Shown here: positions 995-47,029 of the stretch, in pieces
Layout: each line of letters begins with the position of its first letter
Position numbering within the stretch: position 1 is the stretch's first letter
DNA from: a phage
Direction: 5' to 3' (one strand)
Assembly: GCA_028522875.1 (NCBI GenBank)
Contig: GCA_028522875.1_3659.1
Length of the DNA: 64,000 nucleotides
Notes under the pieces: model-generated
The model's input: only the letters and a program-made list of their open reading frames with translations
Database searches by the model: none
Told to the model about the DNA's origin: nothing
Position numbers and translations under genes: made by a program

Positions 995-1006
995 TAGAGG
1001 GCTTTC

Positions 1007-1723: not shown

Positions 1724-1732
1724 GGAGAAATC

Positions 1733-2401: not shown

Positions 2402-2402
2402 G

Positions 2403-8000: not shown

Positions 8001-9481
8001 CTAACGCCACAGCCGAAAGAAATTACCCGCCTGGGCAGCAGATGGCTGGTACATTGATTGTACTCAGAAACTCTGCTAACGAGGGCACGGGCTGTATTCA
8101 GATCTACAAGATGTACCTTGGTGGAACATGGGAAAGGTATTATAATAACACTGGTAGTGGAATGGCTTGGAGTCCTTGGAAGAGAACAAGCTTCCCGGAA
8201 AGCACAACCGCCCCAGTTATGCCTGATCTTTGGTTACCTTTGACCTCCAACTTAAAACCTGCACTTGGCGAGGGTGAGATGGTATTCTCCAGACCATCTA
8301 CAGCAACATACTTTTCTAAACGTGGTGTGATGGTTACTGCCCAGAACGATCAGCCTAGGTTTGAAAGAGATGGTCTGCTTATCGAAGGGCAAAGGACAAA
8401 CCTGATGCTTAACAGTGAAGACCCGAGTAAATGGGGAGCCAGTCAACAGATTACTGTTGGTGGTACTGTAACAAACACTAACGGCACAAAAGGTGCAAGA
8501 TTTACAGTAAACACTGCATCCGGTGTGGAAACAACAGCGTTAAACCTTGCTACAGTTCCAGCCACCAGAGGTGCCGATGTAACAGGTGCTGAGAAATTCT
8601 GTACTGGGTCTATTATTGCAAGGGGAGGTAAAGCGAACCAGAGATTACGTGTAAGATTCGACATGTATGACGGATCCACCACAGTATTCCAAGGTGACGC
8701 TTATGTTAACCTGTCAACACTTGAAGTTAAAACAACAGGTGGTGCAGCTGGGGGAATTAAAGTAAAAGCTGAGAGATGGCAAACAGCTGGACCTGCTTGG
8801 GTAAGGATTGCCGCTACGTTTGAGGCAGTGGCCTCTGACAAGAATATCGGGTGCCAGTTCCAGATTTCTCCACCTGAAGGTGCTCAGCATGTTGTAGGAG
8901 ATTGGGTTGATGTTGCAATACCTCAATTTGAGCTAGGTTCTTGCGAGTCCTCGTTTATTCCCACAGGGTCTTCACCTGTAACTAGAGCGGCAGATCTTTG
9001 CAAATTTCCGATGACTGATAACTTAGCACCTAGACCGTTCACTATTGCCGCTACTGTGGATGCTAACTGGAGAGGTTGGGGAAAAGCTCCTAACGCAGCC
9101 CCTAGGGTTATAGACACAGAAGGACACCAGTCGGGCGCACCTTTTATCCTCGGGTTTGGTTCTGCAACAAATATTGCAGAGGATGGGTATCCATATTGTG
9201 ATATAGGAGGATCTAACCGTAGGGTGTATGAGATGTGTAAGGTACGTAAGTTAAGAATGGGGTTCAGAATAAAAGATGATGGTAAAACATGTTCTTTTGC
9301 TAATGGATTGATTAGCTCTGAAACGCAATCTTCTTGGGAGTTTCTTGCAGGAGGGGCTTTTATCAGGATAGGTGGTCAAACAGCATCTGGTGAAAGACAC
9401 CTGTTCGGGCACATTAAGGATATCAAGCTTTGGAACTCGTCTTTGACCGATACGCAACTTATGATGGAGAATATTGAATAA
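5036..9481 (+). CDS. large tail fibre / tailspike protein with conserved N-terminal anchor domain and C-terminal ConA/LamG-like lectin motif
   Basis: 1481 aa; RBS caggag; N-terminus paralogous to 1733-2401; C-terminus ...HLFGHIKDIKLWNSSLTDTQLMMENIE resembles LamG/ConA-like jelly-roll end motif. Confidence 0.55.
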   Translation: MADIKVVRIESLPATTAVTEDDYLVVQQPDLTRRVKIGDVVHVDGTVSHVISFKEGGKLNGPMDFAYFEEEDLYLRWKGEFPHTVPALSSPYSDGGITDAAWMVYTDPSLREELESTIGASMIMTAEGQSVQDVMDVTVKTANDAKALAQRVDFGTVHTVGDVIHLVNFVGPAVIEEGRTTNYPSVAAGEKFLNGVVSRRDTTTVDGIFRGATSGAMYTIAVTNGVATTKRIALRDEFKRLEANNPTRTVIRAGDDVNTAGYLQLDATGRWGMWNQQTSSWQPLAIEQGGTGARDAAGARINLGAFYKQRAALEANFNINNLTGNQDGVYYQPMTANATEANGYPAGSGAGHLIVWQNNANGGAGCRQEYYPFSNVDVWYLRTYQANTNQWTAWQPMVRPRNDDTFRSHIGLGKNNSPAFGHLYLAQYSGDVKSASGILHGDKYNTDGVLEHGYRIYSEVRNDNKAWLTIHLHKGAKGSETHRYLGFREDGVLDCPKYMQVGDLTGQLTNWGLGEWIRSSGAERGFWGSKKAAKMVIWDGGMDESGNGTLEWGVYNNRKAKWEPLPQAAGGTGATTLAEAQNLFRVPIAAGVKDFLTLPRTAGMEDGKYYPIIVRTDPYYAPTTGTDITIVTRSSSGGDPMNCATLQCHYRTGGWTDRGDSFYGVVNFYQNEKAILGMVAPTRGKQEYVAFYAEARAFPVSIYASRNVLEVFTKEQDYQVGSVTNNQDGVKFCAPLESADLNLAIKGDNVTNTRPLAEFKGTSGFYTGGGTQWHYIGTPERYAVMSKMTMPKVELWADGIDYLCPGSQTTRKALFSNAGFQAASEGTEDLINNTFTSKCGKGAGLKGQSEFRSTPEAGQVIVRDVVGSAHKFFNFNKDGTFYPPGGYVCQTGADWNNQFGNTNPSKIMAGNVNGPEGSMVVAGLSVGFSGNYAFQMAGRLDQLYTRSIEGGNHRAWNKVIQHRGQGLGNSNLNDYKADREGIYHQEANSNATAERNYPPGQQMAGTLIVLRNSANEGTGCIQIYKMYLGGTWERYYNNTGSGMAWSPWKRTSFPESTTAPVMPDLWLPLTSNLKPALGEGEMVFSRPSTATYFSKRGVMVTAQNDQPRFERDGLLIEGQRTNLMLNSEDPSKWGASQQITVGGTVTNTNGTKGARFTVNTASGVETTALNLATVPATRGADVTGAEKFCTGSIIARGGKANQRLRVRFDMYDGSTTVFQGDAYVNLSTLEVKTTGGAAGGIKVKAERWQTAGPAWVRIAATFEAVASDKNIGCQFQISPPEGAQHVVGDWVDVAIPQFELGSCESSFIPTGSSPVTRAADLCKFPMTDNLAPRPFTIAATVDANWRGWGKAPNAAPRVIDTEGHQSGAPFILGFGSATNIAEDGYPYCDIGGSNRRVYEMCKVRKLRMGFRIKDDGKTCSFANGLISSETQSSWEFLAGGAFIRIGGQTASGERHLFGHIKDIKLWNSSLTDTQLMMENIE

Positions 9482-9813
9482 TGAAAGAGCTTACGCTGGG
9501 CTTTAAGGGAAGAAGTGAGTTTGAAGATCTCATGGAGGAGATCGGGTTTGCCACTGATGAGGATTTGCAACAAAAGGTCTTTGTAGAGGTTGTTGGTTTT
9601 ATTTATAAAGAGACCGATCAAACTTATGAGGAAGAAGATGAGTTTGGTAACGCAGTATCATATCCTGTCGTTGTTCGTAGTGATATGTTCTATGTAGACC
9701 TTCTTATCCTGGACCAATCTGCCGTCGATGTTGTGACCAAATGGGGTACAGTTATCGAAGATCCTGGAAGACCTAATAGGTTCTCAACCCCCGCAGTAAC
9801 ACTGGAGGAATAA
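9481..9813 (+). CDS. hypothetical acidic protein (possible fibre chaperone by position)
   Basis: 110 aa, ATGA overlap with upstream fibre gene stop; acidic composition. Confidence 0.45.
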   Translation: MKELTLGFKGRSEFEDLMEEIGFATDEDLQQKVFVEVVGFIYKETDQTYEEEDEFGNAVSYPVVVRSDMFYVDLLILDQSAVDVVTKWGTVIEDPGRPNRFSTPAVTLEE

Positions 9814-9825
9814 ATAATAACCTAA

Positions 9826-9848
9826 CCCCCGCATAGCGGGGGTTTTTT
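9826..9848 (+). terminator. rho-independent terminator
   Basis: cccccgc-atag-gcggggg hairpin followed by tttttt. Confidence 0.65.
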
Positions 9849-9855
9849 GTTTATA

Positions 9856-9884
9856 TTGCGTATTACCTTAAAATTTGATAAAAT
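9856..9884 (+). promoter_or_regulatory. sigma70-like promoter TTGCGT-17-TAAAAT
   Basis: -35 TTGCGT 9856-9861, 17 nt spacer, -10 TAAAAT 9879-9884, upstream of gene starting 9913. Confidence 0.45.
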
Positions 9885-9912
9885 AGTGAAAAGAATTATT
9901 AAACTGGGGGTT

Positions 9913-10506
9913 AAAATGTTTATATGGGAAAGGCCACGATATCTCCCTGATATAAGGCTTGAACTTCTTGCAGATATAGTTAGGTTCAAAAGTCCATTCG
10001 GAGGAAAGGTACAGGAAGTTGTTTATGCAACACCTAACTGGAAAGGAACCCTTACTGTTGCCAATATCAGCGCCTCTCAGCTTATTGAGCTTAGAAATTT
10101 TATAGATAGTGTATATAAAGATGGGAACATATTCCTCATAAAAACATATGGTCACTCTGTAACAGCCAAAGAACCTATTGCTCTTGGACCAACAGGTAAC
10201 GATGATTATTTGAAAACAGTTGGTTGGGAACCCAATACAGATATAGCTAGAGCTGGGGATAAAATATCTGTCAATGATGAGTTAAAGGTTGTAACATCTA
10301 ATGTAAGAAGTGATGGCGTTGGTGCTGCGGTGATTAATATTCAACCTAGGTTGAGAAACCCGATTAAATCAGGAGATACAATGAAGATCCTTACAGAGTC
10401 TCCTAAAGGAAGATTCCATATCAGGGATATTTACAAGATAAAGCAAAAAGTTGATCAGATGGTCACAGGGGACAACATAATCATCAATTTCTTTGAGGAT
10501 TTTTAA
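9913..10506 (+). CDS. tail tip protein (lambda gpL / GTA g12-like position), hypothetical
   Basis: start moved to ATG 9913 (MFIWER, RBS ggggg) because track start 9847 lies inside terminator/promoter; first of a L-K-J-like gene set. Confidence 0.4.
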   Translation, partial: KMFIWERPRYLPDIRLELLADIVRFKSPFGGKVQEVVYATPNWKGTLTVANISASQLIELRNFIDSVYKDGNIFLIKTYGHSVTAKEPIALGPTGNDDYLKTVGWEPNTDIARAGDKISVNDELKVVTSNVRSDGVGAAVINIQPRLRNPIKSGDTMKILTESPKGRFHIRDIYKIKQKVDQMVTGDNIIINFFEDF

Positions 10507-10507
10507 T

Positions 10508-11059
10508 ATGATTAGAGCACCATTTGATAACTTATTTTTAGAAAAACTTGAGCAGGATCGTGTTGAGGTTATTATAGCAGCAAAACTAGAGCTGTCAACA
10601 GGGACTGTAAGATTGTGCTCAGGCACTGGCACAGTAATGATTGCTGGTCAATTGTTTGTTGGGATAGGTGGATCTGCAACAATAAGCGCTGTTACAGAAA
10701 AGGATGCTACAAACTTCGGATCCGTAGTAGCAACACTTAACGGATTTGACCCCAAATTTGTTGGGGATTTGCTAAAAACAGAATATGCAGGATGCCGGGC
10801 CACATTGTATATAACAGCAATGGAAAATGGTCTACCTGTGACTACAAATGGGCTGTTTGATGGCGTTATTACCGACATGGCGATCCACACAGGTGAAAAT
10901 AGTGCACTATCTATCTCCATATCTTCTATCTTCAACAGTTGGCTAAAAGGTTTCCCCGCAAGATACACAGAGGAAAGCCACAGATCCAACAATGATAACG
11001 ATAGATTTTTTAAATACGTTGACCAGGTTGCTAGTCGTCCAATTATCTGGGAGGTTTAA
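10508..11059 (+). CDS. tail protein, DUF2163-like (tentative)
   Basis: ATG 10508 with RBS gaggat; precedes NlpC/P60-like gene as in lambda/GTA tail tip clusters. Confidence 0.35.
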   Translation: MIRAPFDNLFLEKLEQDRVEVIIAAKLELSTGTVRLCSGTGTVMIAGQLFVGIGGSATISAVTEKDATNFGSVVATLNGFDPKFVGDLLKTEYAGCRATLYITAMENGLPVTTNGLFDGVITDMAIHTGENSALSISISSIFNSWLKGFPARYTEESHRSNNDNDRFFKYVDQVASRPIIWEV

Positions 11060-11485
11060 ATGAAGGCAAAACCACGGTGTGTGGATTGGCAAACCAAACT
11101 TTTAGAAGTTATTAACGAAGAGTCTGATAAGGTATTTGAGTGGGGAATTAGCGATTGCTGCACTTTTGCAGCTAAGTGTATTGATGCACAGTACGGTACA
11201 AACTTTATCATGGAGTTTGAGGGAGAATATAAGACAGAAATTGAAAGCAGGAGATTGTGCATTAGGAAATTTGGGACAACTTACTTGCCATCAATTTTTG
11301 ATAATTTTTTGGAAAGAAGGGATTCAAAAAAGCAGGTTCAGAGGGGAGATGTTGTAATATTTACTGGTAAAAATGGACCTACAGCCGGAATTTGGTGGGG
11401 AGGAATGGTGGTATCTAAAGGTAAGAAAGGCCTTGTATGGATAGACTTTTCCGATATTGAAGTTTTAGATGTTTGGGGGTTATAA
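11060..11485 (+). CDS. NlpC/P60-like cysteine peptidase (lambda gpK-like tail tip peptidase)
   Basis: 141 aa; RBS gggagg; candidate nucleophile in ...EWGISDCCTFAAKCID... and His-containing C-terminal part; immediately upstream of J-like protein. Confidence 0.4.
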   Translation: MKAKPRCVDWQTKLLEVINEESDKVFEWGISDCCTFAAKCIDAQYGTNFIMEFEGEYKTEIESRRLCIRKFGTTYLPSIFDNFLERRDSKKQVQRGDVVIFTGKNGPTAGIWWGGMVVSKGKKGLVWIDFSDIEVLDVWGL

Positions 11486-11487
11486 TA

Positions 11488-14400
11488 ATGCCTATTGCGT
11501 TGGTGGACTCCATCGTATCCTCTGCAAGGTCTTCAAGTTACGACTGGAATGCTTCAAAAGCTGCTCTTGCTGACAGTTTAAACACGGTGACAACAAGAAC
11601 GCTTGATAAGATTTTTGAAGGTAACAGAGCTTACCGTGGTCAACAAGAAAGAAAGCAACTATTAAGATCATCTGCCGCCCCTTGCACTGTGGTGTACGGA
11701 GAAACAAGATCCTCCGGTCTGCTATCTTTTGTTGAGCAAGATAGCAGCAAAACACTGCATACAGCAATTGTTCTTGCAAGTCATCCGTTGGAAAGTGTAA
11801 CAGATATTCTTATTGATGGCAATCCAATCTCTAAGTACGGAGATCTTGTAAGCTATGAGATTCACAATGACCCTAAGGTAGCAGATCAGTACATGAGGCA
11901 GCATTGCCCGTCTTGGTCTGTAGACATGATAGGCAGAGGACTGTGCTGGATCAGGGTTAGTTTTAAATTTGACCCAAACAAATTTCCATTCGGCCTTCCT
12001 AATGTTACAGTTCTTAAAAAGGGTAAAAAGGTTTACGATCCTCGAACAGGGAAAAATGTATACTCAAACAACGCAGCTTTGATTATCCTTGACTATCTGA
12101 GAGTTTACCTTAAATGCCCTGATAGTACTATAAACTGGGAATCGTTTAAAGAGGCCGCAAATATCTGTGACGAGATGGTGCAGAATGCTGACGGGACCAG
12201 CGAAAGAAGGTACACCATAAACGGAGAGTTTGACATGGATGAACCCCCAGCAAACATAATGACAGAAATGCTGAAAGCTTGCGGTGGTGATCTTTGTTAT
12301 GTTGCTGGTAAGTACGGCCTTTTAGTTGGTGCATATTATGGACCTGCAAGATACAGGCTTGGAGAAGAATGCGTTTCAGGTGAGGTTAAGATATACCCTG
12401 AAGCGTCTTTCGATAAAAGATCTAATACAATCACGGGTAGATTCATAAGCCCTGCAAAAGGGTATTCTGAGACAGACTTTCCTTCTGTTTTTGTCCCAGA
12501 GTGGGTGGAAAAGGACAAAGAGAGAAAAGTAGTAGATATCGATTACAGGTTCGTAACAAGTCCGTATCAGGCCCAAAGAATTTCTGCAATCTTCTTAAGA
12601 CGTGCCAGAGCTGGTAGGATTATCGAAGTTACGTGCAATATGAGAGGGTTCAAGTTTAAACCTGGTCATTATGTAACCATAGATCTGCCAAGTATTGGTG
12701 TTGTTGGTCAAGAGATGAGGGTGCTTGAGTGGGAATTTACAAAGAAAGGTGGCGTTAAGGTAAAACTACGCCAAGATGCTAAGGAGTGGAATGACGCAAC
12801 AGGTCAACTCCCAGATTCTGGTGACATAGATATTCCGGTCTCTCCGTCAGGTGTTGCACAACCTCAAAATTTTAGATACTCTGTACTACAGGCTGGAGAG
12901 CTAACTCACGGCGTTTTAGCTTGGGACAACGTTGGTGCTTACGCTTATAACATTGTTCAGGTTAAGAAGAATGGTGAAATAGTCTGGACAGCACAGACTG
13001 TCGAGCAGTTTGTGAGGGTTGAGGGTCTTACCCAGGGGTCATACACAGCCACGGTGGTAGCAACATCGTACAAAGGTGGGGTTTCTCCTGAAGCTTATTG
13101 CGAGTTCAATATTCAGGCACCAGAACCACCTGCATCTGTAGAGGTTAAGCAGGGGTATTTTGCAATCACACTTATACCTCACAGCAGAGACCTGGCGAGT
13201 GTTAGTACTCAGTACGATTTCTGGACTTCAGGCACAACACGGCTTGCAAGTACAGCCAACAATATTGTTGAGACACAAGCAACTCGAATGGGTATAGGAT
13301 CCACTTGGACCTCGGAGGGTTTGCAAAACGATAAAACCTATTACTGGTATATCAGGACAACAAATGCTTTTGGTTCATCTGCTTTTGTGGAGTGTGCAGC
13401 CCACTGTTACACATCCATAGAAGATCTTATGCCACAGATCGATGCTGAGTTCAAAAAGACAGAGACTTACAAAGAGCTTACCGCCAATCTCGATAATGCA
13501 GTCAAGGAAATGGATAAAAATGTTGGTGCAGTCAATGACCGTGTTACTAGCATTTTTGAAGAGCTTGGTGATACAATAGAGGGTGTTGTCAGAGAGACGA
13601 CAGAAAAATTTACAGGGGTTAATGGAGAAATTTCTGCCCTTAACAGTAAGCTGGTAGCAGCTCAGCAATCCTTTGACGATAAACTTGCAGCAGAGTCTGG
13701 TAGGCTTGGGTCACTAATCGAGACAACAAATAGATCAACCGTTGATCTTGTTAATCGTAAAACTCAAGCATTGAGTGAGCAAATAACTGCAACTCAAGGT
13801 ACTCTGCGGGAAGAGTTGAAGAACACTGAGAGCAAACTTAACTCCTCTATTCAAGAAACCAACAAGGCAACAACCGATCTGCTAAATAAGACTACGGAAG
13901 CTATTAAGCAGGATCTGGTGGCGGCTACAGGGAAGATTACCAAGCTGGAAGATGATGTGCAGAAAGAGGTTGCCAATCTGCAAGCATCTATTCAAGAAAC
14001 TAATAGTACAACAGTTGATCTTGTTAATAATACAGCCACAGCGATCCGTCAAGAACTTACCTCTGCAAAACAAGAAATTGTTGACGAAATGGGTAATATT
14101 GATGAGCTTAGGGCTACAGTATCTAATACCTCTAAAGCTGTAACAACACTTGAGGGTAAAATAGATGCTCAGTGGGGAGCTAAGATTCAGGTTGACAGTC
14201 ATGGTAATAAATATGTTGCAGGTATCCAGCTGGGCATGGAGGGGTCTGGGGGACAAGTTCAATCATACTTCATGGTTAGTGCAAACAACTTTGCGGTATA
14301 CAACCCCGGAAACGGAACAGCAACCCTTGCTTTCGCAATCAAGAACAACCAAGCGTTCTTGAAAGACGCTTTTATAGAGAATGGCACGATCTCCTCTGCC

Positions 14401-15130: not shown

Positions 15131-15159
15131 TTGACTATTGTTACAAAATTTGGTAAAAT
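15131..15159 (+). promoter_or_regulatory. sigma70-like promoter TTGACT-17-TAAAAT
   Basis: -35 TTGACT 15131-15136, 17 nt spacer, -10 TAAAAT 15154-15159; upstream of baseplate J gene. Confidence 0.5.
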
Positions 15160-15192
15160 ACCTTGTAGAGATTTTCATACCGGAGGAGTGAC

Positions 15193-16683
15193 GTGGCTAA
15201 GTATGGATTGACAGAGGCTGGTTTCGTTATACCAACCCTAAATGACCTAATCGTTGAAACTAAGCAAAGCCTGATCCGTGCTTTTGGCGAAAACTTCAAC
15301 GTACAGAGTAACTCCGTTGCAGATAAGCTGACCACTATCTTCAACGAGCGAGAGTATCAACTTATTCTTATGGCAGCATCTGTATACGCATCACAGACGC
15401 TGTATGGGGCAGAAGGTATTTACCTAGACGAACTTCTTGGAAGACAAGGTATTTACCGAAGAGGCCGTTCTAAATCATCAGGTACCTGCCAGTTGACGAT
15501 CAACACAACTGTGCCGTACAATATGATTTATGATTCCAAAACTTATACGCTGGATAGTGGCAACTTTGTTCTTAGCAATGATGTGCAAGTGGCAGGGAAT
15601 CTTATTGCCCACAGAATAAATGCTCCAGACCTAAGGATTGGTAAATACAACTTTCAAATTACCAACCAGACAGATGGAAGTATCAAAACAAAAAGTTTGG
15701 TTTTAACAGATAAGGCTCTGGACTCTTCTGATCTGCCAAGCTTTTACGGAGAGATTAAGCAATTCATTGTCGATAATACAACCCTGTTGAACGACGATTT
15801 GATTCAGATCGATATGTTGACAGGAACGTTGTGGATAGGGTACAATTCGAATCTTGATCAAGTTGGACTTAATAGTAGGGTAGATTTCAGAGTATCCCCG
15901 ATTGTAGGGGAAAGAACCATCACCCTGGATGTTATCGCTAACGAGGCTGGTGAGCTGTCAAGAGAGGCAGAAACCGTGACAACAATGTCACCTACTCCCA
16001 GTGGATTTATCAAGCTTACCAACCGCGAAAGATTCAACGAGGGCAGGGATGTTGAGAAAGATTCCGAGTATCGCTTAAGAGCTTCCAGCACTAAACAGTT
16101 AACATCGAAGGCTACCCGTCCTGCAATCCTTAGCGCGGTAAGCGAGGTGAAAGGTGTTGAGAAAGTGAGAGTGTTCTCCAACAACACCGATAAAACTGAT
16201 GCTAAAGGTATACCTCCTTACAAGTTCCAAGTGGTTGTGTTTGGTGGTGCAACGGAGGACATTTGCCAAGCACTTTACCAAACTATAGCCTGTACGAACA
16301 GAACTTATGGTAATATTTTCTACGATGTAACTACATCTGACGGTCAAACTGAAAGAATTTATTATTCCAAGGCAAATACCTACCGCCTGGATGTAAGAAT
16401 TACCTACTCAGGTGCTGCGCTTTCCACAACCGAAAAAGATGCCATTGTAGAGGCTCTTTTGCAGGTTGTTAACGGACTGGATGTTGCAGATACGTTGTAC
16501 AATATCCAATTGGTTGGTGCTGCATCTGCTGCTGTGTCGATAGGTAGATTTAATAGACTGGTAATTCAAGTTAAACCTGTGGGGGCTTCTGATGAAGCTT
16601 ACACTGCAAACGATATTGTTGCAAACATGACCGAGGTGTTTGACCTCGATGAAAGTAATATAACTTTCCAACAAACTATTTAA
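15193..16683 (+). CDS. baseplate J-like protein (gp6/gp47/gpJ family)
   Basis: GTG start with RBS ggagg; N-terminal region ...LILMAASVYASQTLYGAEGIYLDELLGRQGIYRRGRSKSSGTCQLT matches conserved baseplate_J motif (A.g..Ld.lg...G..R..a..A.G.v.ft). Confidence 0.65.
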   Translation: MAKYGLTEAGFVIPTLNDLIVETKQSLIRAFGENFNVQSNSVADKLTTIFNEREYQLILMAASVYASQTLYGAEGIYLDELLGRQGIYRRGRSKSSGTCQLTINTTVPYNMIYDSKTYTLDSGNFVLSNDVQVAGNLIAHRINAPDLRIGKYNFQITNQTDGSIKTKSLVLTDKALDSSDLPSFYGEIKQFIVDNTTLLNDDLIQIDMLTGTLWIGYNSNLDQVGLNSRVDFRVSPIVGERTITLDVIANEAGELSREAETVTTMSPTPSGFIKLTNRERFNEGRDVEKDSEYRLRASSTKQLTSKATRPAILSAVSEVKGVEKVRVFSNNTDKTDAKGIPPYKFQVVVFGGATEDICQALYQTIACTNRTYGNIFYDVTTSDGQTERIYYSKANTYRLDVRITYSGAALSTTEKDAIVEALLQVVNGLDVADTLYNIQLVGAASAAVSIGRFNRLVIQVKPVGASDEAYTANDIVANMTEVFDLDESNITFQQTI

Positions 16684-16694
16684 GGCGGCGAGAT

Positions 16695-17381
16695 ATGGCA
16701 GAGATTAAGTCGGATGTTAACCACATCCACACTCTGCCAGATTTTGTTCAGGGAGGTCTTGACTACCTGCCTGGAGATTTTCTGGCTGAGAAGGTTAATT
16801 TAGTCACATTCTTAACCGTGTACCTTAAAAGGTTGGAGGATGTTGATAAGATGCTGGTAGGTTTGGCTGAAGGAAGATTGCTTAATAATGCCAGCGGAAG
16901 ATACCTTGACGAAGTTGGTAATCAACTCGGTATTCTTAGGAATGGACTTTCAGATGCTGATTTTCGTGCCACACTAATTATTCAGCAGGCCGCAGCATCA
17001 AGGGGCGGGACTCGCGAAGATGTCATCTCCACCTTGCGACAATTGTTCGGAAGAAACAATTTCGATACGTGGAAAGGAGACAACTTCAGGTTTGACATAA
17101 ATATTAGAAAAACTTGCTTTGACATATTGCAGTCTATTGATCAGATCTTAGACATGCTACCACTGCCTTGTCATTTGCGTCTTACAGAATCGCAAGGGCA
17201 AGCTTTTGGTTTTGAAGGTGACTCTACAGCTCTTGGCTTCGGATCAGTGTGGGAAGAAAACCAATCCGGAGTTGGTGGGCTGGCTACTTTGCTGTATGTT
17301 CCTGACGTAAGACCTGATTGGGACACCACAACCATTTATTGTGAAAGTATTACAGTAAACGCAACTAGACAGGAGGGTTAA
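16695..17381 (+). CDS. baseplate/tail protein I-like (P2 gpI / XkdU DUF2313-like)
   Basis: 228 aa; segment LGILRNGLSDADFRATLIIQQAAASRGGTREDVISTLRQLFG resembles the kR.li..a....kGT...v...l family signature; directly downstream of J. Confidence 0.45.
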   Translation: MAEIKSDVNHIHTLPDFVQGGLDYLPGDFLAEKVNLVTFLTVYLKRLEDVDKMLVGLAEGRLLNNASGRYLDEVGNQLGILRNGLSDADFRATLIIQQAAASRGGTREDVISTLRQLFGRNNFDTWKGDNFRFDINIRKTCFDILQSIDQILDMLPLPCHLRLTESQGQAFGFEGDSTALGFGSVWEENQSGVGGLATLLYVPDVRPDWDTTTIYCESITVNATRQEG

Positions 17382-19453
17382 TGGCAACAGCTGTTTTTAA
17401 ACCTTACCGTGATTACTCTACAATGGCTGCACGGTTTCATTACCGCACAGTTCAGGATACTGCCGTTCCTGGTAGGGATTATGATCATGTTGAGGGCGAT
17501 ATAACTATCCCAGTTGGGGCAACCAGTATTGAAATCCCAGTGGAAATTGTTGACAAATTACCCAACAGGTTACCAAGAAGCTTCTTTATGGAGTTTTCAT
17601 CAAAATCTCAAGGGGTGATGATTGGGACACAAAGGGCGAAATGTACAATAGTTTCAGATGAGAATCTTGACAGAATATCTTGGGATACTGTCGAGGAGAG
17701 AATGTTTCACCCAAGATATTGGGTTACAACCACTCAGCAGACTGAAAGTACCTGTATTGTTGCAGATGACAACTGTTGTATTAACCGTTTAGTGTCAAGA
17801 ACATATGGAGGTATGGCTGGGTGCATTTGGGAAACAGTTGACAAGTATGACCATTTCGGTATTGGGTTTGATGATCACTATGAGATGAGAAACACCAAGC
17901 TTTGGTTCAGAATGTCAATAACCAATGCCAGCAACTTCTCCACTCCTGAAAAGATGATTATGACTGTAGACCTTGTTGATGGTACAATCATCTATGTTCC
18001 TTTAGCTCAATATGCTGTCAGCATCTCAGAGGATAAGAATGTTGCAGAGATTCATATTGATTTCGAGGACTGCGTCGGGATGGATCAGAACAACAACATG
18101 ATGGGTGTTGATCCTCGACAGGTGAGAAGAATTTTAATACCGCTCATGCCTAAAGACTGGGTAAGTAATAGCACAGACCCGAGAACGGAAAATGTAGAGT
18201 GTGAGTTGCGCCTAGATCTGCTTCAGCCAGACACGGGCTGGAAAATGATGCAACTTAACAATATTCAGGTTAAAGAGCACGACGTTGGGATCTGCACCGC
18301 ATATGACGATATGTGGAACGTATCTCCTTTAAGGGTGTTGAACAATATCAAGCGTCTGGGCTATACCGGAACCATAAACCATTATGTTGGTATGAGTCAT
18401 TATTATGACTACACATGGTCAGGAACCCAATGGTCTATAAACAGAACAGGGGCGCTAAACGCTGCAGCTTATAAATGGCATGATGATTTTATGTACAATG
18501 CCAAACGACATAACTTCGACGTTATGCAGTCTGTAAGTTTTGAGCTTTACAGCGATGCCTGCCCGTTGGAATGGACCCAAAGAGACTGGAATGATAACTA
18601 CGCTAAAACAGGATATACACCTTGTAGCTACCTCCTGTCTCCAACCATTGAAGAGGGTATGAATTTCCTTACTGCAGTATTTAAGAATTTTGCATCAGCC
18701 GCTATGAGAAACAACCTGCCAGTGATTATGCAGGTTGGTGAACCGTGGTGGTGGTTCAATACCGATACTCGTAGACCTTGTATTTATGATTACCCTACAA
18801 AACAGGCGTTTTATGATGAGACAGGCGAGTATGCCTTAGATATTGGGACTATTGACGATCCTAAAACTGGCGGTGTTTACGACAAGTATGTAGCATTTTG
18901 TCGTGGTAAGCTTGGCGCTCGTATTGCGGCTATTTCAAAGGCAATAAAGGCACACGCTGCATCAGCTCAGATGACAGCTCTGCTGTTTTTCCCAACCATT
19001 ATGGAAACCGAGCTTACGCAAAAGCTGAACCTTGCTGACCAATATAAAAAAGAAGCAGGTGCTCTTGATTTCTTCTGCACTGAGTGTTACGATTGGGTGA
19101 TGCAGGGAGGTATTGAAAAGGCAAAAGAGTCTGTAAACATACCTATCGTTAAGTTAGGTTGGCAACCGTCTGAAATACAATACCTTGCAGGGTTCGTTCC
19201 TAGTAAAGAGCTTGCTCCGGTATATGGATACGACCCAACCAGGAATTACCAAGAATTTTTATGGAGATGTATTTGCGGAAACATGGCAACTATAGAGTAT
19301 AGATACCCTGAGGTAAAACAGTATGTGTGGGCATACCCGCAAGTAATGTCTGACAGCATCACTGTTACCGCTAGAGATTCTACCGTGCTTCATATGGGGC
19401 AGGTTGCTCTGAAAGGGTATGTAGAGGATGTTGTCCCGCCAGACTTCTCATAA
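17381..19453 (+). CDS. tail-associated protein with N-terminal Calx-beta-like domain (function unknown)
   Basis: 690 aa; ATGA overlap with upstream gene; N-terminal FHYRTVQDTAVPGRDYDHVEGDITIPVGATSIEIPVEIVDKLPNRLPRSFFMEF resembles Calx-beta. Confidence 0.4.
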   Translation: MATAVFKPYRDYSTMAARFHYRTVQDTAVPGRDYDHVEGDITIPVGATSIEIPVEIVDKLPNRLPRSFFMEFSSKSQGVMIGTQRAKCTIVSDENLDRISWDTVEERMFHPRYWVTTTQQTESTCIVADDNCCINRLVSRTYGGMAGCIWETVDKYDHFGIGFDDHYEMRNTKLWFRMSITNASNFSTPEKMIMTVDLVDGTIIYVPLAQYAVSISEDKNVAEIHIDFEDCVGMDQNNNMMGVDPRQVRRILIPLMPKDWVSNSTDPRTENVECELRLDLLQPDTGWKMMQLNNIQVKEHDVGICTAYDDMWNVSPLRVLNNIKRLGYTGTINHYVGMSHYYDYTWSGTQWSINRTGALNAAAYKWHDDFMYNAKRHNFDVMQSVSFELYSDACPLEWTQRDWNDNYAKTGYTPCSYLLSPTIEEGMNFLTAVFKNFASAAMRNNLPVIMQVGEPWWWFNTDTRRPCIYDYPTKQAFYDETGEYALDIGTIDDPKTGGVYDKYVAFCRGKLGARIAAISKAIKAHAASAQMTALLFFPTIMETELTQKLNLADQYKKEAGALDFFCTECYDWVMQGGIEKAKESVNIPIVKLGWQPSEIQYLAGFVPSKELAPVYGYDPTRNYQEFLWRCICGNMATIEYRYPEVKQYVWAYPQVMSDSITVTARDSTVLHMGQVALKGYVEDVVPPDFS

Positions 19454-19465
19454 TCAGGAGATAAA

Positions 19466-20506
19466 ATGTCAAAACCTAGTTTTCCATTAGAGATTTGGGC
19501 AGAGGAGGATCAGGTTCTGCCTAACACCCACAGACAGAACAGGCTACGCCCGATTGATGATTTGTGGAGAAAAGGTTGGGATCTTGGTCAAAAGCCCTCA
19601 TGTGAAGAACTTAACTATATTTTCAATATGCTCGGAACTTGGGCAAAATACATTGCTGACGAGCAGATCCCCGCTCAAGAAGGCCGTTATCTGGTACGTG
19701 ATAATAACTTGAGTGATCTTTTGAACATTCCTGTTGCCCGTAGAAACCTTGGGATTATTACTAAGGAAGAAGCAGACGCCAGGTATGTAAAAGTTACAGG
19801 TGATACAATGACAGGCCCGTTGGGTTTGCAACGTATCAACTTTAAAGCTGCCGAGACAGATAAGGCTTGGATAGAGACAACTATTGGCCCAGATAAGACA
19901 ACTCTCGACTTTGGGCTAAGTGATAATACTGGGTCGTTTGATGATGGTGGTACATCTACAGTAGATGCGTTTCGTTGGAGATTCCAGCCAACTCAGCCGG
20001 ATATTAATCCAGAGTTCACTTTGATGTACCTTAACGCGATCACGGCTAACCGTGCGCTGTTGAAAGTGGTCGGCAATGTTGAAGTTGTCGATAACATGAG
20101 GTGCAATAACCTTACTATCAGCAATACAGCAACATTCACCAACTGTAATGTGGCTAGTCAGTTGACGACTGGGTCAGTGTATGTTAATGGAGGTGCAAGT
20201 TGTGACAGTATGGTTGTAAGAAGTCAGCACTGTGTTGTCGGTAACAGAAATGTGGTGCGCTCTGTGAATGGAGTGACGGCTAACGGTAACGGTGATGTAA
20301 CAATCACTATCCCGCAGACAGGTGTGCAAGACATCAGAATCGGTGCAAGACTTGTTGACGGCGTTTCCGAATCTCCAATTCGCAACGGCTACGTTGTCAC
20401 AGGCTGGCATTTCGGTGACAAAAAAGAGATGCGTGGTTCAACCTACTGGGCAGGACCTTTACAAAAACTTGTAAACGGTCAATGGATCACTGTTAATTAT
20501 GCATAG
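19466..20506 (+). CDS. tail fibre tip / adhesin paralog A
   Basis: 346 aa; RBS caggag; shares N- and C-termini with 21521-22564 (M.KP..PL.IWA..D.VL.NT ... W.G..QKLVNGQWIT..YA) with divergent centre. Confidence 0.55.
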   Translation: MSKPSFPLEIWAEEDQVLPNTHRQNRLRPIDDLWRKGWDLGQKPSCEELNYIFNMLGTWAKYIADEQIPAQEGRYLVRDNNLSDLLNIPVARRNLGIITKEEADARYVKVTGDTMTGPLGLQRINFKAAETDKAWIETTIGPDKTTLDFGLSDNTGSFDDGGTSTVDAFRWRFQPTQPDINPEFTLMYLNAITANRALLKVVGNVEVVDNMRCNNLTISNTATFTNCNVASQLTTGSVYVNGGASCDSMVVRSQHCVVGNRNVVRSVNGVTANGNGDVTITIPQTGVQDIRIGARLVDGVSESPIRNGYVVTGWHFGDKKEMRGSTYWAGPLQKLVNGQWITVNYA

Positions 20507-20520
20507 ATCGGAGGACTAGC

Positions 20521-21105
20521 ATGAAAATACTTCAAGAGTTTAAACTTTACCAACCGGGATCTGGCGAATACCACTCCAACAAGGAAACCAAGGAGCTGAC
20601 CCCTCAAGAGGTTGAGGATTACACCGCATACACTGGGTATTTTTTACGTAATGATGATGGCGATTGGTATGTGCAGTCACGAACATTACGACAAGAAAAT
20701 CCGGGTTGTATCTTCCTACTTGTTGACGAGAAGGGAATTCTTAAGACATCTACAGAAGAACCTGATGCCTTATGGCCTGCTCCAGGTCTTCGTGTGGTTA
20801 TCGCCAAAAAAGAAGAGGTACCAGAAAACATTATGCTTCACCACGACGCTTTGCGTTTAGTTGGTGATGAATTTGTCACAGATAATGAATTCTTTGTTCA
20901 ACAGGCAGAGGGTGTCATAGAGACAGAACTTGCTTGGGCTACTGCTAGAATTGGTGCCTATCAAGACATGATTGACCTTGAATATGATCTTACTGATGAC
21001 CAGAAACGTAACATCAGAGATTTGAAAATGTACAGGGTAAAACTTCTTGAAATAGATACATCTAAAGCCCCTGACATTTTCTTCCCGGAGCGACCTACCC
21101 TCTAA
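20521..21105 (+). CDS. tail fibre assembly protein (Tfa/gp38-like chaperone)
   Basis: 194 aa directly after fibre paralog; C-terminus ...MYRVKLLEIDTSKAPDIFFPERPTL fits the Tfa motif (yR..L..vd.s.aPdi.WP..P). Confidence 0.55.
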   Translation: MKILQEFKLYQPGSGEYHSNKETKELTPQEVEDYTAYTGYFLRNDDGDWYVQSRTLRQENPGCIFLLVDEKGILKTSTEEPDALWPAPGLRVVIAKKEEVPENIMLHHDALRLVGDEFVTDNEFFVQQAEGVIETELAWATARIGAYQDMIDLEYDLTDDQKRNIRDLKMYRVKLLEIDTSKAPDIFFPERPTL

Positions 21106-21116
21106 GAGGAGGTGTT

Positions 21117-21431
21117 GTGGAGTTGGATTTGGCGGCATTGTACGGTATCTGCATGGGTACCGTTGTCCCGATCTGTGTATGGGCTTTCAACCAGTGGCAC
21201 ACCAAATGGAAAGGCATTTCCAAGAGGTTAGATGAACTGGAGAAAGACCTCATCTTAGTGAAAAACAGTATGGTTACAAAAGATAAACTTGATTCCGTTA
21301 TCGAGACCCGGTTAAGCAAGCTAGAGGCCGATATTAACGACCTTAAGCAGGATGTCAGGACAGATGTCTCCGGTATCCGAGCTGATGTACAAAAGATTTT
21401 GCACATGCTCGTAGAGCATAGTAAAAGGTAA
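21117..21431 (+). CDS. small membrane-anchored coiled-coil protein
   Basis: GTG start with RBS agaggagg; hydrophobic N-terminal segment (ALYGICMGTVVPICVWAF) then heptad-like charged region. Confidence 0.4.
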   Translation: MELDLAALYGICMGTVVPICVWAFNQWHTKWKGISKRLDELEKDLILVKNSMVTKDKLDSVIETRLSKLEADINDLKQDVRTDVSGIRADVQKILHMLVEHSKR

Positions 21432-21440
21432 ACAAAGGTC

Positions 21441-21470
21441 AGAACGGAAAGGACTCCGTTCTTGCATTTT
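21441..21470 (+). terminator. rho-independent terminator
   Basis: agaacgga-aaggac-tccgttct hairpin followed by tgcattttgttct. Confidence 0.5.
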
Positions 21471-21490
21471 GTTCTCTAAAGTGTTAAAAT
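21462..21490 (+). promoter_or_regulatory. sigma70-like promoter TTGCAT-17-TAAAAT
   Basis: -35 TTGCAT 21462-21467, 17 nt spacer, -10 TAAAAT 21485-21490; upstream of fibre paralog B. Confidence 0.5.
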
Positions 21491-21520
21491 AGTCCTAAGG
21501 AATTTTCTCAGGAGAACGCG

Positions 21521-22564
21521 ATGACTAAACCAGTTATCCCTCTTGATATTTGGGCCAATCAGGATGTTGTGCTTGAAAATACGGGAGAGTTGAATAAGTC
21601 TCAACCAAAAAAAGAAGAGAGATTGAAAGGTTGGGATATGACACAAAGAGTGGCATGTGAAGTTGTTAACTTTGAACTTCACATGCTTTCTGCGTGGTTA
21701 AAGCATCTAACAGAAGATGTTGTCCCAGGATGGGATAATAGATTCTTAAGGGTCACTAATAATCTAGCAGACGTTCCAGACAAAGCTGCTGCACGTCAAG
21801 TTCTCAATGTATACTCGCCTGAAGAAATGGACGATTTGTATGTTGACAAGTCTGGAGACATAATGACTCAGACTCAAACTTTAGGCCTTCAAAGAATCGA
21901 GTTTGCATCTGCGTCAACAGACAATGCGGCAATATATACCACCATAACCTCAGACAAGACGATGATGGATTTCTGGATTATGGACAACATCGGTGGTGCT
22001 GACGGCACAGATCTTGATGATCCTTCTCACCAAATAGACGGGTTCCGTTGGAGATTTCAGCCTTCTGGTGGGCAGCCTGTGTTTTCGGCTATGAAGCTCA
22101 ATGCTATAACTGCCAACCGTGCAAGACTGGCTATCCAAGGAAATCTTGAATGCAACGATGCAAAAAGTTCCTCTGCAAATGCCAATGCAGTTACTATACC
22201 AAGAGCCACTGTTAATGGACAACAATCCTGCGGAAGCGCTCAAATAGGTGGAAGAGTTGATTGTAACGATGAAACCGTCAGGGGCCAATATGCAACAGTT
22301 GGTGGAAGAAACGTGGTCCGCAGGGTAAATGGTAACGGCGCAGACAGTAGTGGTAACCTTACTATTCCTATGCCTAGCAGAGGGGTTGATGATGTAAGGA
22401 TAGCAAACCGTTTCAAAACCACCTACAGAGAGTCAAGAGTCTACCCTGGACATGTGATGTGCTCTGGTAACTACGCTTATAAACACCCTTATCAAGGTGA
22501 CTACTGGACAGGTGCTATCCAAAAACTTGTAAATGGTCAATGGATCACTATATCTTATGCTTAA
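21521..22564 (+). CDS. tail fibre tip / adhesin paralog B
   Basis: 347 aa; RBS caggag; conserved termini shared with 19466-20506, divergent central region. Confidence 0.55.
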   Translation: MTKPVIPLDIWANQDVVLENTGELNKSQPKKEERLKGWDMTQRVACEVVNFELHMLSAWLKHLTEDVVPGWDNRFLRVTNNLADVPDKAAARQVLNVYSPEEMDDLYVDKSGDIMTQTQTLGLQRIEFASASTDNAAIYTTITSDKTMMDFWIMDNIGGADGTDLDDPSHQIDGFRWRFQPSGGQPVFSAMKLNAITANRARLAIQGNLECNDAKSSSANANAVTIPRATVNGQQSCGSAQIGGRVDCNDETVRGQYATVGGRNVVRRVNGNGADSSGNLTIPMPSRGVDDVRIANRFKTTYRESRVYPGHVMCSGNYAYKHPYQGDYWTGAIQKLVNGQWITISYA

Positions 22565-22575
22565 AAAGAGGGTAA

Positions 22576-22842
22576 ATGAAACTAACTCAGTTTTTATGGG
22601 GACTGGTTGCGGCATCTGATGACCCTACGAAAGTATCCCAATCTAAGCTATGGTCGAACATAGGCATGGCGGTGATGACTGGGGTGTTTATTCATATGGG
22701 GTATAATGATACGCTTCCTGAATGGTATGCGTGGATATATGCACCTTCAGTAGCCTGCCCCCAGCTTATTAGCAAATTCATCTCGCTCCGGTGGGGTTGC
22801 CAGCACCCTGACCACGTTAAAAACGAAGAGCAAAAAGCTTAA
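22576..22842 (+). CDS. small hydrophobic protein (possible membrane protein)
   Basis: 88 aa; RBS aaagaggg; hydrophobic segments FLWGLVAA and IGMAVMTGVFIHMG. Confidence 0.4.
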   Translation: MKLTQFLWGLVAASDDPTKVSQSKLWSNIGMAVMTGVFIHMGYNDTLPEWYAWIYAPSVACPQLISKFISLRWGCQHPDHVKNEEQKA

Positions 22843-22851
22843 GGAGAAATC

Positions 22852-24597
22852 ATGGCGCAAGACATGACAAGCTTTGAGCAGGCGGTAGATCAAGTAATTG
22901 TTGATTCTGAACGTTTGCACCTGATTGTCAACGGTAACGCTGTGGATGAAGTTGTCGTAGAGGATGGGACCACCATCCCTACGGTACGAAAAGCCATGCT
23001 TGACACCCTTTATTTTAAAACGCCGCCGATCCCTTGGGCGTATGGTGCATCCACAACAGTTTTTAACCAGCTATATGAGTTTAAAGGGGACACAGGCCCT
23101 CAGTGGTGGTACGCTCCCGCAGCATCAAAATCTAACCCGGTTAGAATGCCAGCAGATCCTTCACAATCTCCAAACTGGAGATTATATACCGACTCTGCAG
23201 TAATGGCAAAATACTACGCAAAACTTAACAGCCCAAGGTTCGAAGGTGACCCGCGAGTACCTACGCCTCCAATGGACGATAAGTCTGAGTCTATAGCAAA
23301 CACAGAGTTTGTTGTTGACTATGTAGATAGCATATTTGAAGCTATGGAGGGGATGAAGGTTACTGTAGGGTCTTTGGTGGTAAAAGGTCTTACAGAACTT
23401 GCTAACACCATAGTTGGTGGCACCCTTACCTTACATGGACCTGTTAATGGGGCAGATTCTACTGCACGCTTTAGGAATCTAATCCTCACGGCAAATACTT
23501 CTACACTTACTTTTGCGTGGAGCGATCCTAAGCATGCAGACTGGAGAAGTACAGAGCTGCAACCTCATGAAGTGTCCACCCACAGGGTTATAGCTGACAC
23601 TATAACTTCTGGGAAACCAGTGGCTAATAATAACGATGTGCATTTTGATGGTCTGGGTAATAACTTTTTTGACTACGTGTACATTCGTGGTAATGCCATG
23701 AAGGCAGCAACCGAACCGACATTGCAGGTCGATGGGACCACCAGGGTTAAGAACCTTGAGGTGACAGGTACCGTTACAGGGATAACATACTCTGTCGATG
23801 GCACCATGATCTACCCTAGCTATATTGAAAGCACGGGTGATGCACTGATAAATGGCGATTTGGAGGTTGGCGGGTCTGTAGTTATTCGAGGTACAGCCTC
23901 TATCCAAAATATATCTCTGAATACTCTAAGAGTCAATGAGCGTGCAACTTTTGAAGGAGAAGGGCTTACAGCCAATAAAGGTACAATTACCGAGCTGACC
24001 GCCACCACTTTAACTGCAACAACTGCAAACTCTGAAAACTGCAACATTACCAGAAACTTGCAGGTAAATGGAGATGTCAGTTTAAACGCCTCAGGGACTG
24101 GCACCACCTACCTTCACAATCTTGAAATATCCGGCACAGTGACCGGGTGGCTGCCAGACTTCTCTAATGTCAACTTTGTCTGTAATGGCATTAACTCCAG
24201 TGGTAAGATAACCACCTCTCAAGAAATTGAGGCTGGTAAAACCATCACTGCCCCTACTTTCCACGCAGGGAAGGTAGATTTCGATTTAGAGGAGGTTGAC
24301 GCGTCCAGTGGGACATGGACACCTAACGGGCAGGCCAGTATGTATGTTGTCCACGCTAAAGGGGATTTTACAATAGGGCAGTGGCCTGGAACATCAGCGG
24401 AAGATAAACCTTATCCATTCACTGCAGTTATCTATGTAATTCAGGATGCTGTAGGTCACAACGTGACTCTGCACGATAAGTATGCTATCCTGTCGGCAAC
24501 ACCTGTTATTAACAACAAGGCTAACAGTGTTACCTTGCTGCAATTGACGTATTGTGGTGTTGGTGATATCGTAGACGTAGTAATTGCACAACGTTAA
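22852..24597 (+). CDS. tail fibre protein (P2 gpH / lambda Stf-like N-terminal collar motif)
   Basis: 581 aa; RBS aaggag; contains LNSPRFEGDPRVPTPPMDDKSESIANTEFV, matching the conserved tail-fibre motif SP.ftG.PtaPT....nstqIAtTaFV. Confidence 0.6.
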   Translation: MAQDMTSFEQAVDQVIVDSERLHLIVNGNAVDEVVVEDGTTIPTVRKAMLDTLYFKTPPIPWAYGASTTVFNQLYEFKGDTGPQWWYAPAASKSNPVRMPADPSQSPNWRLYTDSAVMAKYYAKLNSPRFEGDPRVPTPPMDDKSESIANTEFVVDYVDSIFEAMEGMKVTVGSLVVKGLTELANTIVGGTLTLHGPVNGADSTARFRNLILTANTSTLTFAWSDPKHADWRSTELQPHEVSTHRVIADTITSGKPVANNNDVHFDGLGNNFFDYVYIRGNAMKAATEPTLQVDGTTRVKNLEVTGTVTGITYSVDGTMIYPSYIESTGDALINGDLEVGGSVVIRGTASIQNISLNTLRVNERATFEGEGLTANKGTITELTATTLTATTANSENCNITRNLQVNGDVSLNASGTGTTYLHNLEISGTVTGWLPDFSNVNFVCNGINSSGKITTSQEIEAGKTITAPTFHAGKVDFDLEEVDASSGTWTPNGQASMYVVHAKGDFTIGQWPGTSAEDKPYPFTAVIYVIQDAVGHNVTLHDKYAILSATPVINNKANSVTLLQLTYCGVGDIVDVVIAQR

Positions 24598-24606
24598 TAT
24601 ATCTAA

Positions 24607-24630
24607 CCGCTCCTGACGGGGCGGTTTTCT
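24607..24630 (+). terminator. candidate rho-independent terminator
   Basis: ccgctcc-tgac-ggggcgg hairpin (one G-U pair) followed by ttttctt. Confidence 0.45.
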
Positions 24631-46969: not shown

Positions 46970-47029
46970 TAAGATGTTAGTCTAAAGGGGAGGCACTCCT
47001 CCCCACAAAAACTAAGGAAGCACTAAACG

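Follow-up and report, generated by a model that had tools for sequence, protein, structure and literature searches.

A duplicated short tail fiber in an rV5-like phage

Two complete short tail fiber genes, designated A and B, lie on the same strand of a 64,000-nucleotide stretch of phage DNA (NCBI GenBank assembly GCA_028522875.1, contig GCA_028522875.1_3659.1; hereafter the window), where they form a five-gene unit with a fiber chaperone gene and two further small genes at positions 19466–22842. Phages of the rV5 type are common broad-host-range Escherichia coli phages that are used in typing, biocontrol and therapy cocktails, and it is their short fibers that determine the last and irreversible stage of adsorption. 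The pair is the published gp33 (A) and gp30 (B) of phage rV5 and, as such, the feature is real, correctly located and already known (Kropinski et al., 2013; Maffei et al., 2021). The genes, their order and the predicted promoter P030 are the same in rV5, with no difference of substance. What is new here is the comparative history of the pair: duplication within the lineage, replacement by B of a gene (m2) that single-fiber relatives possess, faster evolution of B, a changed anchor in B, and near-identical A and B tips in one metagenomic lineage (L014). These comparative details, along with the single chaperone gene for two fibers, turn a vague "dual specificity", which had been put forward in 2013 and which a first-pass annotation made from the DNA sequence had proposed for the locus, into two testable alternatives, namely different tips or different docking, and could guide the interpretation of a future structure of the rV5 baseplate.

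The 10-kb stretch around the locus shares 97–99% DNA identity with the sequenced genomes of >100 Escherichia phages in Vequintavirus, the genus of the rV5-like myoviruses, and the whole window is collinear with phage RudolfGeigy except for a few variable segments. By these DNA matches, the window belongs to an E. coli phage of the rV5 type and represents a further isolate or strain within Vequintavirus. Positions 19466–22842 correspond to rV5 open reading frames (ORFs) 33 to 29, and all five ORFs were found exactly at the coordinates assigned to them in the first-pass annotation. Across these five genes the annotations of the BASEL phages read short tail fiber protein, tail fiber chaperone, hypothetical protein, short tail fiber protein and hypothetical protein. 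The rV5 proteins gp30 (347 amino acids) and gp33 were described as similarly sized tail fiber proteins with 42.3% identity, for which two lipopolysaccharide (LPS) chemotypes were proposed, and the text of that study names gp30, gp32 and gp33 among the proteins detected by mass spectrometry of virions (Kropinski et al., 2013; PMC3606486). Homology of the short-fiber pair to the one such locus in phi92-like phages, and more remotely to GpS and GpU of Mu, subsequently was recognized, and no considerable allelic variation was observed in the paralogs (Maffei et al., 2021; PMC8594841).

Alignment and domain anatomy of the paralogs

The A and B proteins align over their full length in BLASTP with 42% identity and 58% positives (19 gap positions; E 2e-92), and each matches protein family phrog_4465 from end to end (E 1e-171 for A; E 1e-165 for B). 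This full-length alignment establishes A and B as genuine paralogous fiber genes, as proposed initially. The common C-terminal sequence QKLVNGQWIT..YA also was confirmed: the last 63 nt of the two genes are 83% identical, and the last 16 residues of the proteins share 75% identity. However, the description of the pair as having conserved termini and divergent centers was not borne out. An identity profile calculated with a 20-residue sliding window was patchy, with the best-conserved blocks at residues 1–20 (60%), 110–150 (55–65%), 185–205 (65%), 250–275 (60–65%) and the last ~25 residues (60%); residues 110–200 and 250–275, which are central, are thus among the best conserved. The weakest stretches span residues 50–100 (25–30%), 205–245 (20–25%) and 290–330 (25–35%). 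Insertions or deletions of 2, 4, 2 and 6 residues distinguish the proteins at four sites at the anchor-shaft junction or within the shaft, and one single-residue indel is present in the tip.

The predicted layout of A comprises an N-terminal baseplate anchor (residues ~1–105), a shaft, and a tip that resembles that of Mu gpS (residues ~286–346). Residues 1–108 of A match residues 1–111 of the short tail fiber of Pectobacterium phage phiTE (PDB 9cuy; E 1.4e-19), and residues 1–83 of B match the N-terminus of the same structure (E 1.4e-9). In cryo-electron microscopy of phiTE, the globular joint through which the short fiber attaches to wedge 1 is made up of residues 3–92 (PMC11972413). The tip of A matches residues 440–501 of Mu S (PDB 5yvq) in phmmer searches performed with the whole protein (E 1.7e-6) or with the tip alone (E 3e-4), and the alternative Mu tip S′ matches the A tip weakly. 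The B tip alone produced no sequence match to Mu S or S′. AlphaFold2 monomer models generated from a 27-sequence alignment had predicted local distance difference test (pLDDT) scores of 61 for A and 60 for B, and predicted template modeling scores of 0.33 and 0.29, respectively. Poor monomer models are expected for intertwined trimers. For both of these low-confidence models, Foldseek returned a single significant PDB match, chain 5yvq_A (E 1.3e-7 for A; E 6e-7 for B). The assignment of the B tip as Mu S-like derives from its alignment to A and the Foldseek match of a low-confidence model. Taken together, the alignments and models place A and B as paralogous fibers of the Mu gpS/P2 gpH kind.

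Duplication history and divergence of B

Neighbor-joining trees with 300 bootstrap replicates were constructed for the whole protein, the shaft, and the N-terminal domain. The A clade was recovered with a bootstrap value of 1.0 and the B clade with 0.99, and the grouping of A and B apart from all single-copy fibers had a value of 1.0 in both the whole-protein and the shaft tree. The separation of this joint clade from the single-copy fibers places the duplication inside the Vequintavirus lineage. The anchor-only tree of the N-terminal domain returned a value of 0.05 for A and B monophyly, with B as a long-branch outlier. Protein A is 48% identical to the single fiber of phage Av-05 and 42% identical to B, and B is 38–42% identical to every other fiber in the comparison. 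On position and sequence, A is assigned as the ancestral copy that is orthologous to the single short fiber of other Vequintavirinae. Paralog B is assigned correspondingly as the derived copy which replaced m2 and gained both a terminator-like hairpin and its own late-promoter motif.

Two divergent metagenomic lineages (L010–L013, and L014) retain the full arrangement with both fiber genes intact. The phage database holds 116 records with A at ≥95% identity and 117 with B at ≥90%. Paralog B has diverged faster than A, with 78% versus 87% identity to the respective L010 protein and 47% versus 73% to that of L014. Nonsynonymous divergence values of 0.09–0.51, with synonymous divergence at or beyond saturation, indicate that both A and B are under purifying selection. 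The concern that one copy might be a pseudogene in relatives therefore can be set aside, as both genes are intact in ~116 sequenced Vequintavirus genomes and in the divergent metagenomic lineages and are under purifying selection.

A site was counted as B-specific if its residue is kept by at least 85% of the single-copy fibers and by every A-type fiber but is changed in all B-type fibers. Fifteen sites of this type were detected, 13 of which fall within residues 1–117; the reverse pattern occurs at only five positions. Among the affected sequences is the anchor motif RPIDDLW.KGWD.GQKP, which reads QPKKEERLKGWDMTQRV in B. This altered anchor sequence suggests that the docking site or the docking mode of B may differ from that of A.

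The tips (residues 291–330) of A and B are 31% identical to each other both in the window and in L010, and each type is well conserved between the window and L010 (90% for the A type and 92% for the B type). In L014, the A and B tips (last ~56 residues) are 85–100% identical at the protein level, and the anchors and shafts differ as in rV5. Third codon positions in the L014 tips are only 35–65% identical, which argues against either assembly collapse or recent gene conversion as the source of the protein identity. The L014 evidence comprises positions 116–3254 of a single 13-kb contig (ENA ERZ15185469) with coverage of ~1.5. Overall, the tip behaves as a separate module that is near-identical to that of A in L014, but that has diverged in rV5-type phages and in L010. 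The B-type tip was found only in Vequintavirus in tblastn searches against phages, with the next best match, in Seunavirus, at 45% identity. The A-type tip is 57–59% identical to the fibers of Rosemountvirus and Phapecoctavirus.

Organization of the locus

The features of the locus, all of which are on the + strand, are as follows.

15151..15160, +, late-promoter-like motif TGGTAAAATA (rV5 P036); sequence as in rV5 Table S4C; upstream of the baseplate gene
15193..16683, +, baseplate wedge protein, P2 gpJ-like (rV5 gp36); PF04865 Baseplate_J, E 4e-9; baseplate annotation in relatives
16695..17381, +, small baseplate/wedge protein (rV5 gp35); baseplate annotation in relatives; weak DUF2612 match
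17381..19453, +, rV5 gp34, 690 amino acids, N4 gp65-like non-contractile-sheath TIM-barrel with Calx-beta and NCTSP_N; PF23845 E 1e-79, PF23844 E 7e-13, PF03160 E 2e-5
19466..20506, +, short tail fiber paralog A (rV5 gp33), 346 amino acids; 99.4% identical to rV5 ORF33 (tblastn); phrog_4465
20521..21105, +, Tfa chaperone of the Mu gpU/lambda Tfa type (rV5 gp32), 194 amino acids; PF02413 E 9e-12 over C-terminal residues 121–192; phrog_136 E 2e-36
21117..21431, +, m1 (rV5 gp31), 104 amino acids; phrog_5345 E 1e-48
21441..21462, +, terminator-like hairpin, then TTGCATTTT, between m1 and B; −16 kcal/mol, z −3.5, 0 of 200 shuffles fold as well
21482..21491, +, late-promoter-like motif TGTTAAAATA (rV5 P030), 30 nt upstream of B; as in PMC3606486 Table S4C
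21521..22564, +, short tail fiber paralog B (rV5 gp30), 347 amino acids; 100% identical to rV5 gp30 (tblastn); phrog_4465
22576..22842, +, m3 (rV5 gp29), 88 amino acids; phrog_1322 E 3e-32
22852..24597, +, rV5 gp28, 581-amino acid tail fiber protein; phrog_4549; follows m3 in all relatives
24605..24626, +, intrinsic terminator after gp28 (rV5 t028); in rV5 Table S4D

The order gp34, A, Tfa, 104-residue protein, B, 88-residue protein and gp28 is alike in the window, in rV5 and in the divergent lineages L010–L014. With the Baseplate_J wedge protein and the small baseplate protein upstream, the unit has the classic P2/Mu arrangement of wedge genes, fiber and Tfa; in rV5-like phages and Av-05, the N4 gp65-like gp34, as an insertion, separates the wedge genes from the fiber. 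The gp34 protein, which is encoded directly upstream of A, is a lateral fiber/receptor-binding component, and the domain family to which it belongs has been linked in recent work to recognition of the "NGR" glycan related to enterobacterial common antigen (ECA) in Vequintavirus and N4. By analogy with the placement of the phiTE short fiber on wedge 1 (PMC11972413), gp35 is a candidate docking partner of the short-fiber anchor. The L010 orthologue of gp28 carries domains PF26208 and PF26209, which are the N- and C-terminal domains of phiTE gp241.

The gene that follows A was recognized correctly as Tfa in the first-pass annotation (PF02413, E 9e-12). A tblastn search of the window revealed no second Tfa; the chaperone gene is single-copy, and B is without a Tfa of its own. 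The Tfa proteins of the two-fiber lineages (the window, L010 and L014) possess an extra ~17–20 residues near the N-terminus (residues ~13–35). The extra stretch is absent from the proteins of the single-fiber phages Av-05, GAP31, KpS8 and tuntematon, and sits in the domain that binds the fiber tip in Mu.

The m1 and m3 products had been described as a membrane coiled-coil protein and a small hydrophobic protein, respectively. The m1 protein possesses one N-terminal hydrophobic segment (residues 1–25; mean Kyte-Doolittle hydropathy over 19 residues of 1.91), and the remainder is coiled-coil-like with weak, sub-threshold matches to coiled-coil entries in Pfam and NCBIfam. The membrane part of the description thus is supported by the hydrophobic segment, and the coiled coil is suggested by the weak matches only. 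The m3 protein does follow B and is small, but is only moderately hydrophobic, with a maximum 19-residue hydropathy of 1.05; its PHROG family is labelled "membrane protein". Searches of Pfam and NCBIfam with m2 and m3 returned no match. Holin, spanin or superinfection-exclusion roles for m1–m3 are guesses.

The proposal that each paralog is accompanied by a different downstream partner did not survive comparison with single-fiber relatives, in which m1 and m3 also follow the short fiber and Tfa; moreover, there is only one Tfa. The gene order in the single-fiber phages Av-05, GAP31 and KpS8 is short tail fiber, Tfa, m1 (104 amino acids), m2 (157 amino acids), m3 (87–91 amino acids) and a fiber of ~585 amino acids, and the m1–m3 trio occupies positions 5638–6701, 5650–6719 and 5536–6609 in relatives L005, L006 and L008, respectively. 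Compared with the equivalent proteins of Av-05, GAP31 and KpS8, m1 of the window is 32–33% identical (E 1e-19 to 1e-21), m3 is 51–58% identical (E ~1e-30), and the 581-residue gp28 is 40–43% identical. The 104-residue and 88-residue proteins therefore are orthologues of m1 and m3 of single-fiber relatives and represent ancestral neighbors instead of fiber-specific partners. The m2 protein (phrog_7451) is polytopic, with ~4–5 hydrophobic segments. No homologue of m2 is present anywhere in the window, and B occupies the exact position that m2 holds in the single-fiber relatives, m2 having been lost in rV5-like phages. In one Phapecoctavirus, a weakly related 111-residue "lipoprotein" is found at the m1 position.

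Predicted promoter and terminator signals upstream of B

A stable hairpin, followed by a T-rich tail, and the motif TGTTAAAATA are found in the 89-bp gap that precedes B. The putative late promoter P030 of rV5 (Kropinski et al., 2013; PMC3606486, Table S4C) is identical in sequence to positions 21469–21505 of the window. The sequence TGKTAAAATA has only two matches in the window, at 15151..15160 and 21482..21491. Among the window, L010 and L014, the TGYTAAAATA motif and the TTGCATTTT that follows the hairpin are invariant, whereas the sequence of the hairpin stem varies. A scan with the sigma-70 consensus detected no + strand promoter before B. The suggestion that B possesses its own promoter is consistent nonetheless with the conserved late-promoter motif that matches rV5 P030. 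The hairpin at 21441–21462 is a presumptive terminator, and is not included in the rV5 terminator list (PMC3606486). In the single-fiber relatives, m1 and m2 overlap by 4 nt and both the hairpin and the late-promoter motif are missing. Paralogs A and B probably belong to separate transcription units: fiber A, Tfa and m1 probably are transcribed from P036, and gp28 probably lies on the same late transcript as B.

Function of the fiber pair

In the favored reading, A and B each would form their own homotrimer and both would be built into the baseplate wedge. The chaperone gp32 would bind the near-identical C-terminal end of the two proteins (YW.G..QKLVNGQWIT) and nucleate trimerization from the C-terminus, as is described for Mu Tfa. 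During infection, the lateral fibers first would engage ECA or capsule, after which the short-fiber tips would bind the LPS core to commit the phage to irreversible adsorption. The pair most likely widens the LPS-core range because the A and B tips differ in rV5-type phages. That the different tips widen the set of LPS-core variants which trigger contraction in these phages is considered an evenly balanced proposition, and dual receptor specificity in itself is plausible, with the tip divergence fitting the idea.

Several observations weigh against this reading. No experiment that separates the roles of gp30 and gp33 was found in the literature. All Vequintavirinae that have been tested, single-fiber phages included, depend on the same LPS-core glucose (PMC8594841), and the existence of phi92-like single-fiber phages with the same waaG dependence implies that a second specificity is not required for infection of K-12. 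The 85–100% identity between the L014 tips speaks against different tips as a universal reason for keeping two copies. The reading also assumes that one Tfa can serve two tips that are 31% identical across residues 291–330; in Mu and P1, each alternative tip has its own Tfa. The supplementary mass spectrometry (DTASelect) table for rV5 lists 19 proteins (Additional file 5, PMC3606486), and none of the gp29–gp33 peptides that were searched for is present in the supplements, which conflicts with the text of that paper or at least leaves its statement undocumented; the case for virion incorporation thus rests on that text. Finally, the AlphaFold monomer models are poor, and structural inferences from them are weak accordingly.

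The two fibers alternatively might recognize the same LPS-core sugar, with the remodeled anchor of B providing attachment at a second baseplate site or angle that confers more avidity or another trigger geometry. This explanation is entertained as a tentative one. It accommodates the concentration of B-specific changes in the first 117 residues (13 of 15), the outlying position of the B anchor in the N-terminal domain tree (0.05 for A and B monophyly versus 1.0 for the shaft), and the retention of the B-type anchor signature in all three lineages including L014, in which the tips are 85–100% identical. It also fits the single LPS-core dependence across tested Vequintavirinae and the paralogs' freedom from allelic variation (PMC8594841). 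Nevertheless, the B tip is only 31% identical to that of A in residues 291–330 yet is 92% conserved between the window and L010, a pattern suggestive of a binding surface of its own under selection; the L014 lineage is represented by one metagenomic contig of low coverage; and a second docking site appears in no structure. It is possible, albeit doubtful, that the pair is kept mainly for geometry, as a second, differently docked ring of short fibers on rV5-like baseplates. If so, the pair would be a natural example of baseplate-site neofunctionalization of a fiber anchor that is served by a single Tfa. It is improbable that B has ceased to bind a receptor and, with the ancestral fiber fold simply retained, has become a structural part of the baseplate or fiber network, such as a connector by which the lateral fibers are held or let go. 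The faster divergence of B than A in every comparison and the lack of a sequence match between the B tip alone and Mu S or S′ would accord with a structural role, and the long fiber of phiTE contacts the short fiber (PMC11972413), so that fiber-fiber contacts do occur in the group. However, the fiber architecture of B is complete, with a C-terminal end of the Tfa type and the invariant motifs of the shaft; the B model matches only Mu S, and gp30 was treated as a tail fiber by Kropinski et al. (2013; PMC3606486).

Co-assembly of A and B into heterotrimers, which would generate one kind of fiber with a mixed tip, is very improbable. Although the last 16 residues, several shaft motifs and the chaperone are common to the two proteins, indels of 2, 4, 2 and 6 residues and identity of 20–25% in residues 205–245 would break a threefold shaft. 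In addition, the genes probably are in separate transcription units and each paralog forms its own clade. A programmed switch or diversification of the tips, either by inversion of the Gin/Cin type or by a diversity-generating retroelement, is effectively refuted. The model for such a switch is provided by the S/S′ fibers of Mu and by those of P1, which have a tip fold in common with A and are switched by inversion. In the window, however, A and B are complete genes in direct orientation on the same strand, without crossover repeats: inverted repeats are only 14–18 nt long with 78–86% complementarity, which is at chance level. Apart from the 63-nt 3′ end, which is 83% identical, A and B have no long direct repeat in common, and the mismatches in that segment are not confined to adenine, as they would be under a retroelement. 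Both genes hardly vary over ~116 genomes, and their tips are invariant. The annotation of the collinear 64 kb of RudolfGeigy includes neither an invertase nor a reverse transcriptase, and the genes of the window locus carry other assignments. The view of the first-pass annotation that these enzymes are absent and that the arrangement is fixed instead of switching is upheld by the direct orientation, by the lack of flanking inverted repeats beyond chance, and by the absence of an annotated invertase or reverse transcriptase across the collinear RudolfGeigy genome segment.

Comparison with known fiber systems

The unit resembles gpS/gpU of Mu in that the tip of A is homologous to Mu S and a PF02413 Tfa gene is located directly downstream. 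Mu possesses one fiber gene with two C-termini that are switched by Gin and a Tfa for each tip, whereas the window possesses two complete fiber genes and one Tfa. The anchor also is of the Vequintavirinae/phiTE type and not of the Mu type. In Mu Tfa, a variable N-terminal domain binds the fiber tip and a conserved C-terminal domain drives trimerization, and the chaperone stays on the virion (PMC9608196). The N-terminal ~105 residues of the phiTE short fiber (PDB 9cuy/9mjn) are homologous to A and B, but only the anchor is common: the phiTE protein is a 554-residue fiber with a coiled-coil shaft and an immunoglobulin-like tip that is present as a single copy in a flagellotropic phage.

The same cassette of wedge genes, short tail fiber, Tfa and m1 is found in Avunavirus (Av-05), Seunavirus (GAP31 and PVP-SE1), Mydovirus (KpS8) and Phapecoctavirus. 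Paralog A is 42–48% identical to the short fibers of these single-fiber loci, which keep m2 where rV5-like phages have B. The gp12 protein of T4 is a functional analogue: it is a trimer on the baseplate that makes adsorption irreversible by attaching to the LPS core. The systems differ in that T4 employs the chaperone gp57A in place of the Tfa type found here, and one gene with allelic variants in place of two paralogs. HHpred comparisons of gp30 and gp33 with T4 gp12 (1PDI) gave probabilities of 98.4 and 97.7 (Kropinski et al., 2013; PMC3606486). No chain of the T4 gp12 structure was among the phmmer or Foldseek matches of A and B.

Other features of the window and its relatives

The top DNA matches to the window (98.7%) are records of the MG0656xx series (e.g., MG065662.1) that are named "Campylobacter phage" with C. 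jejuni as host. These genomes plainly are those of an rV5-like coliphage, and the host label probably is wrong or reflects a contaminant origin. Among the segments that vary between the window and RudolfGeigy, positions 7894–9835 and 11201–14102, which are parts of the large lateral tail fiber genes, have no megablast match in RudolfGeigy, and the intervening positions 9836–11200 are only 75% identical. These segments fit the allelic variation in large lateral fibers that was described by Maffei et al. (2021; PMC8594841). The window lacks the ~1.3-kb gene for an N6-adenine methyltransferase that RudolfGeigy carries (bas52_0070), with the junction at ~47025–47033. The DNA polymerase ORF at 51165–54563 contains an in-frame insertion of ~1 kb (53177–54173) that is absent in RudolfGeigy and that starts with CYSGDTQILTEKGW. 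The insertion has a sub-threshold match to a Hint domain (PF13403, E 7e-5; 23.7 bits versus a cut-off of 28.4) and looks like an intein.

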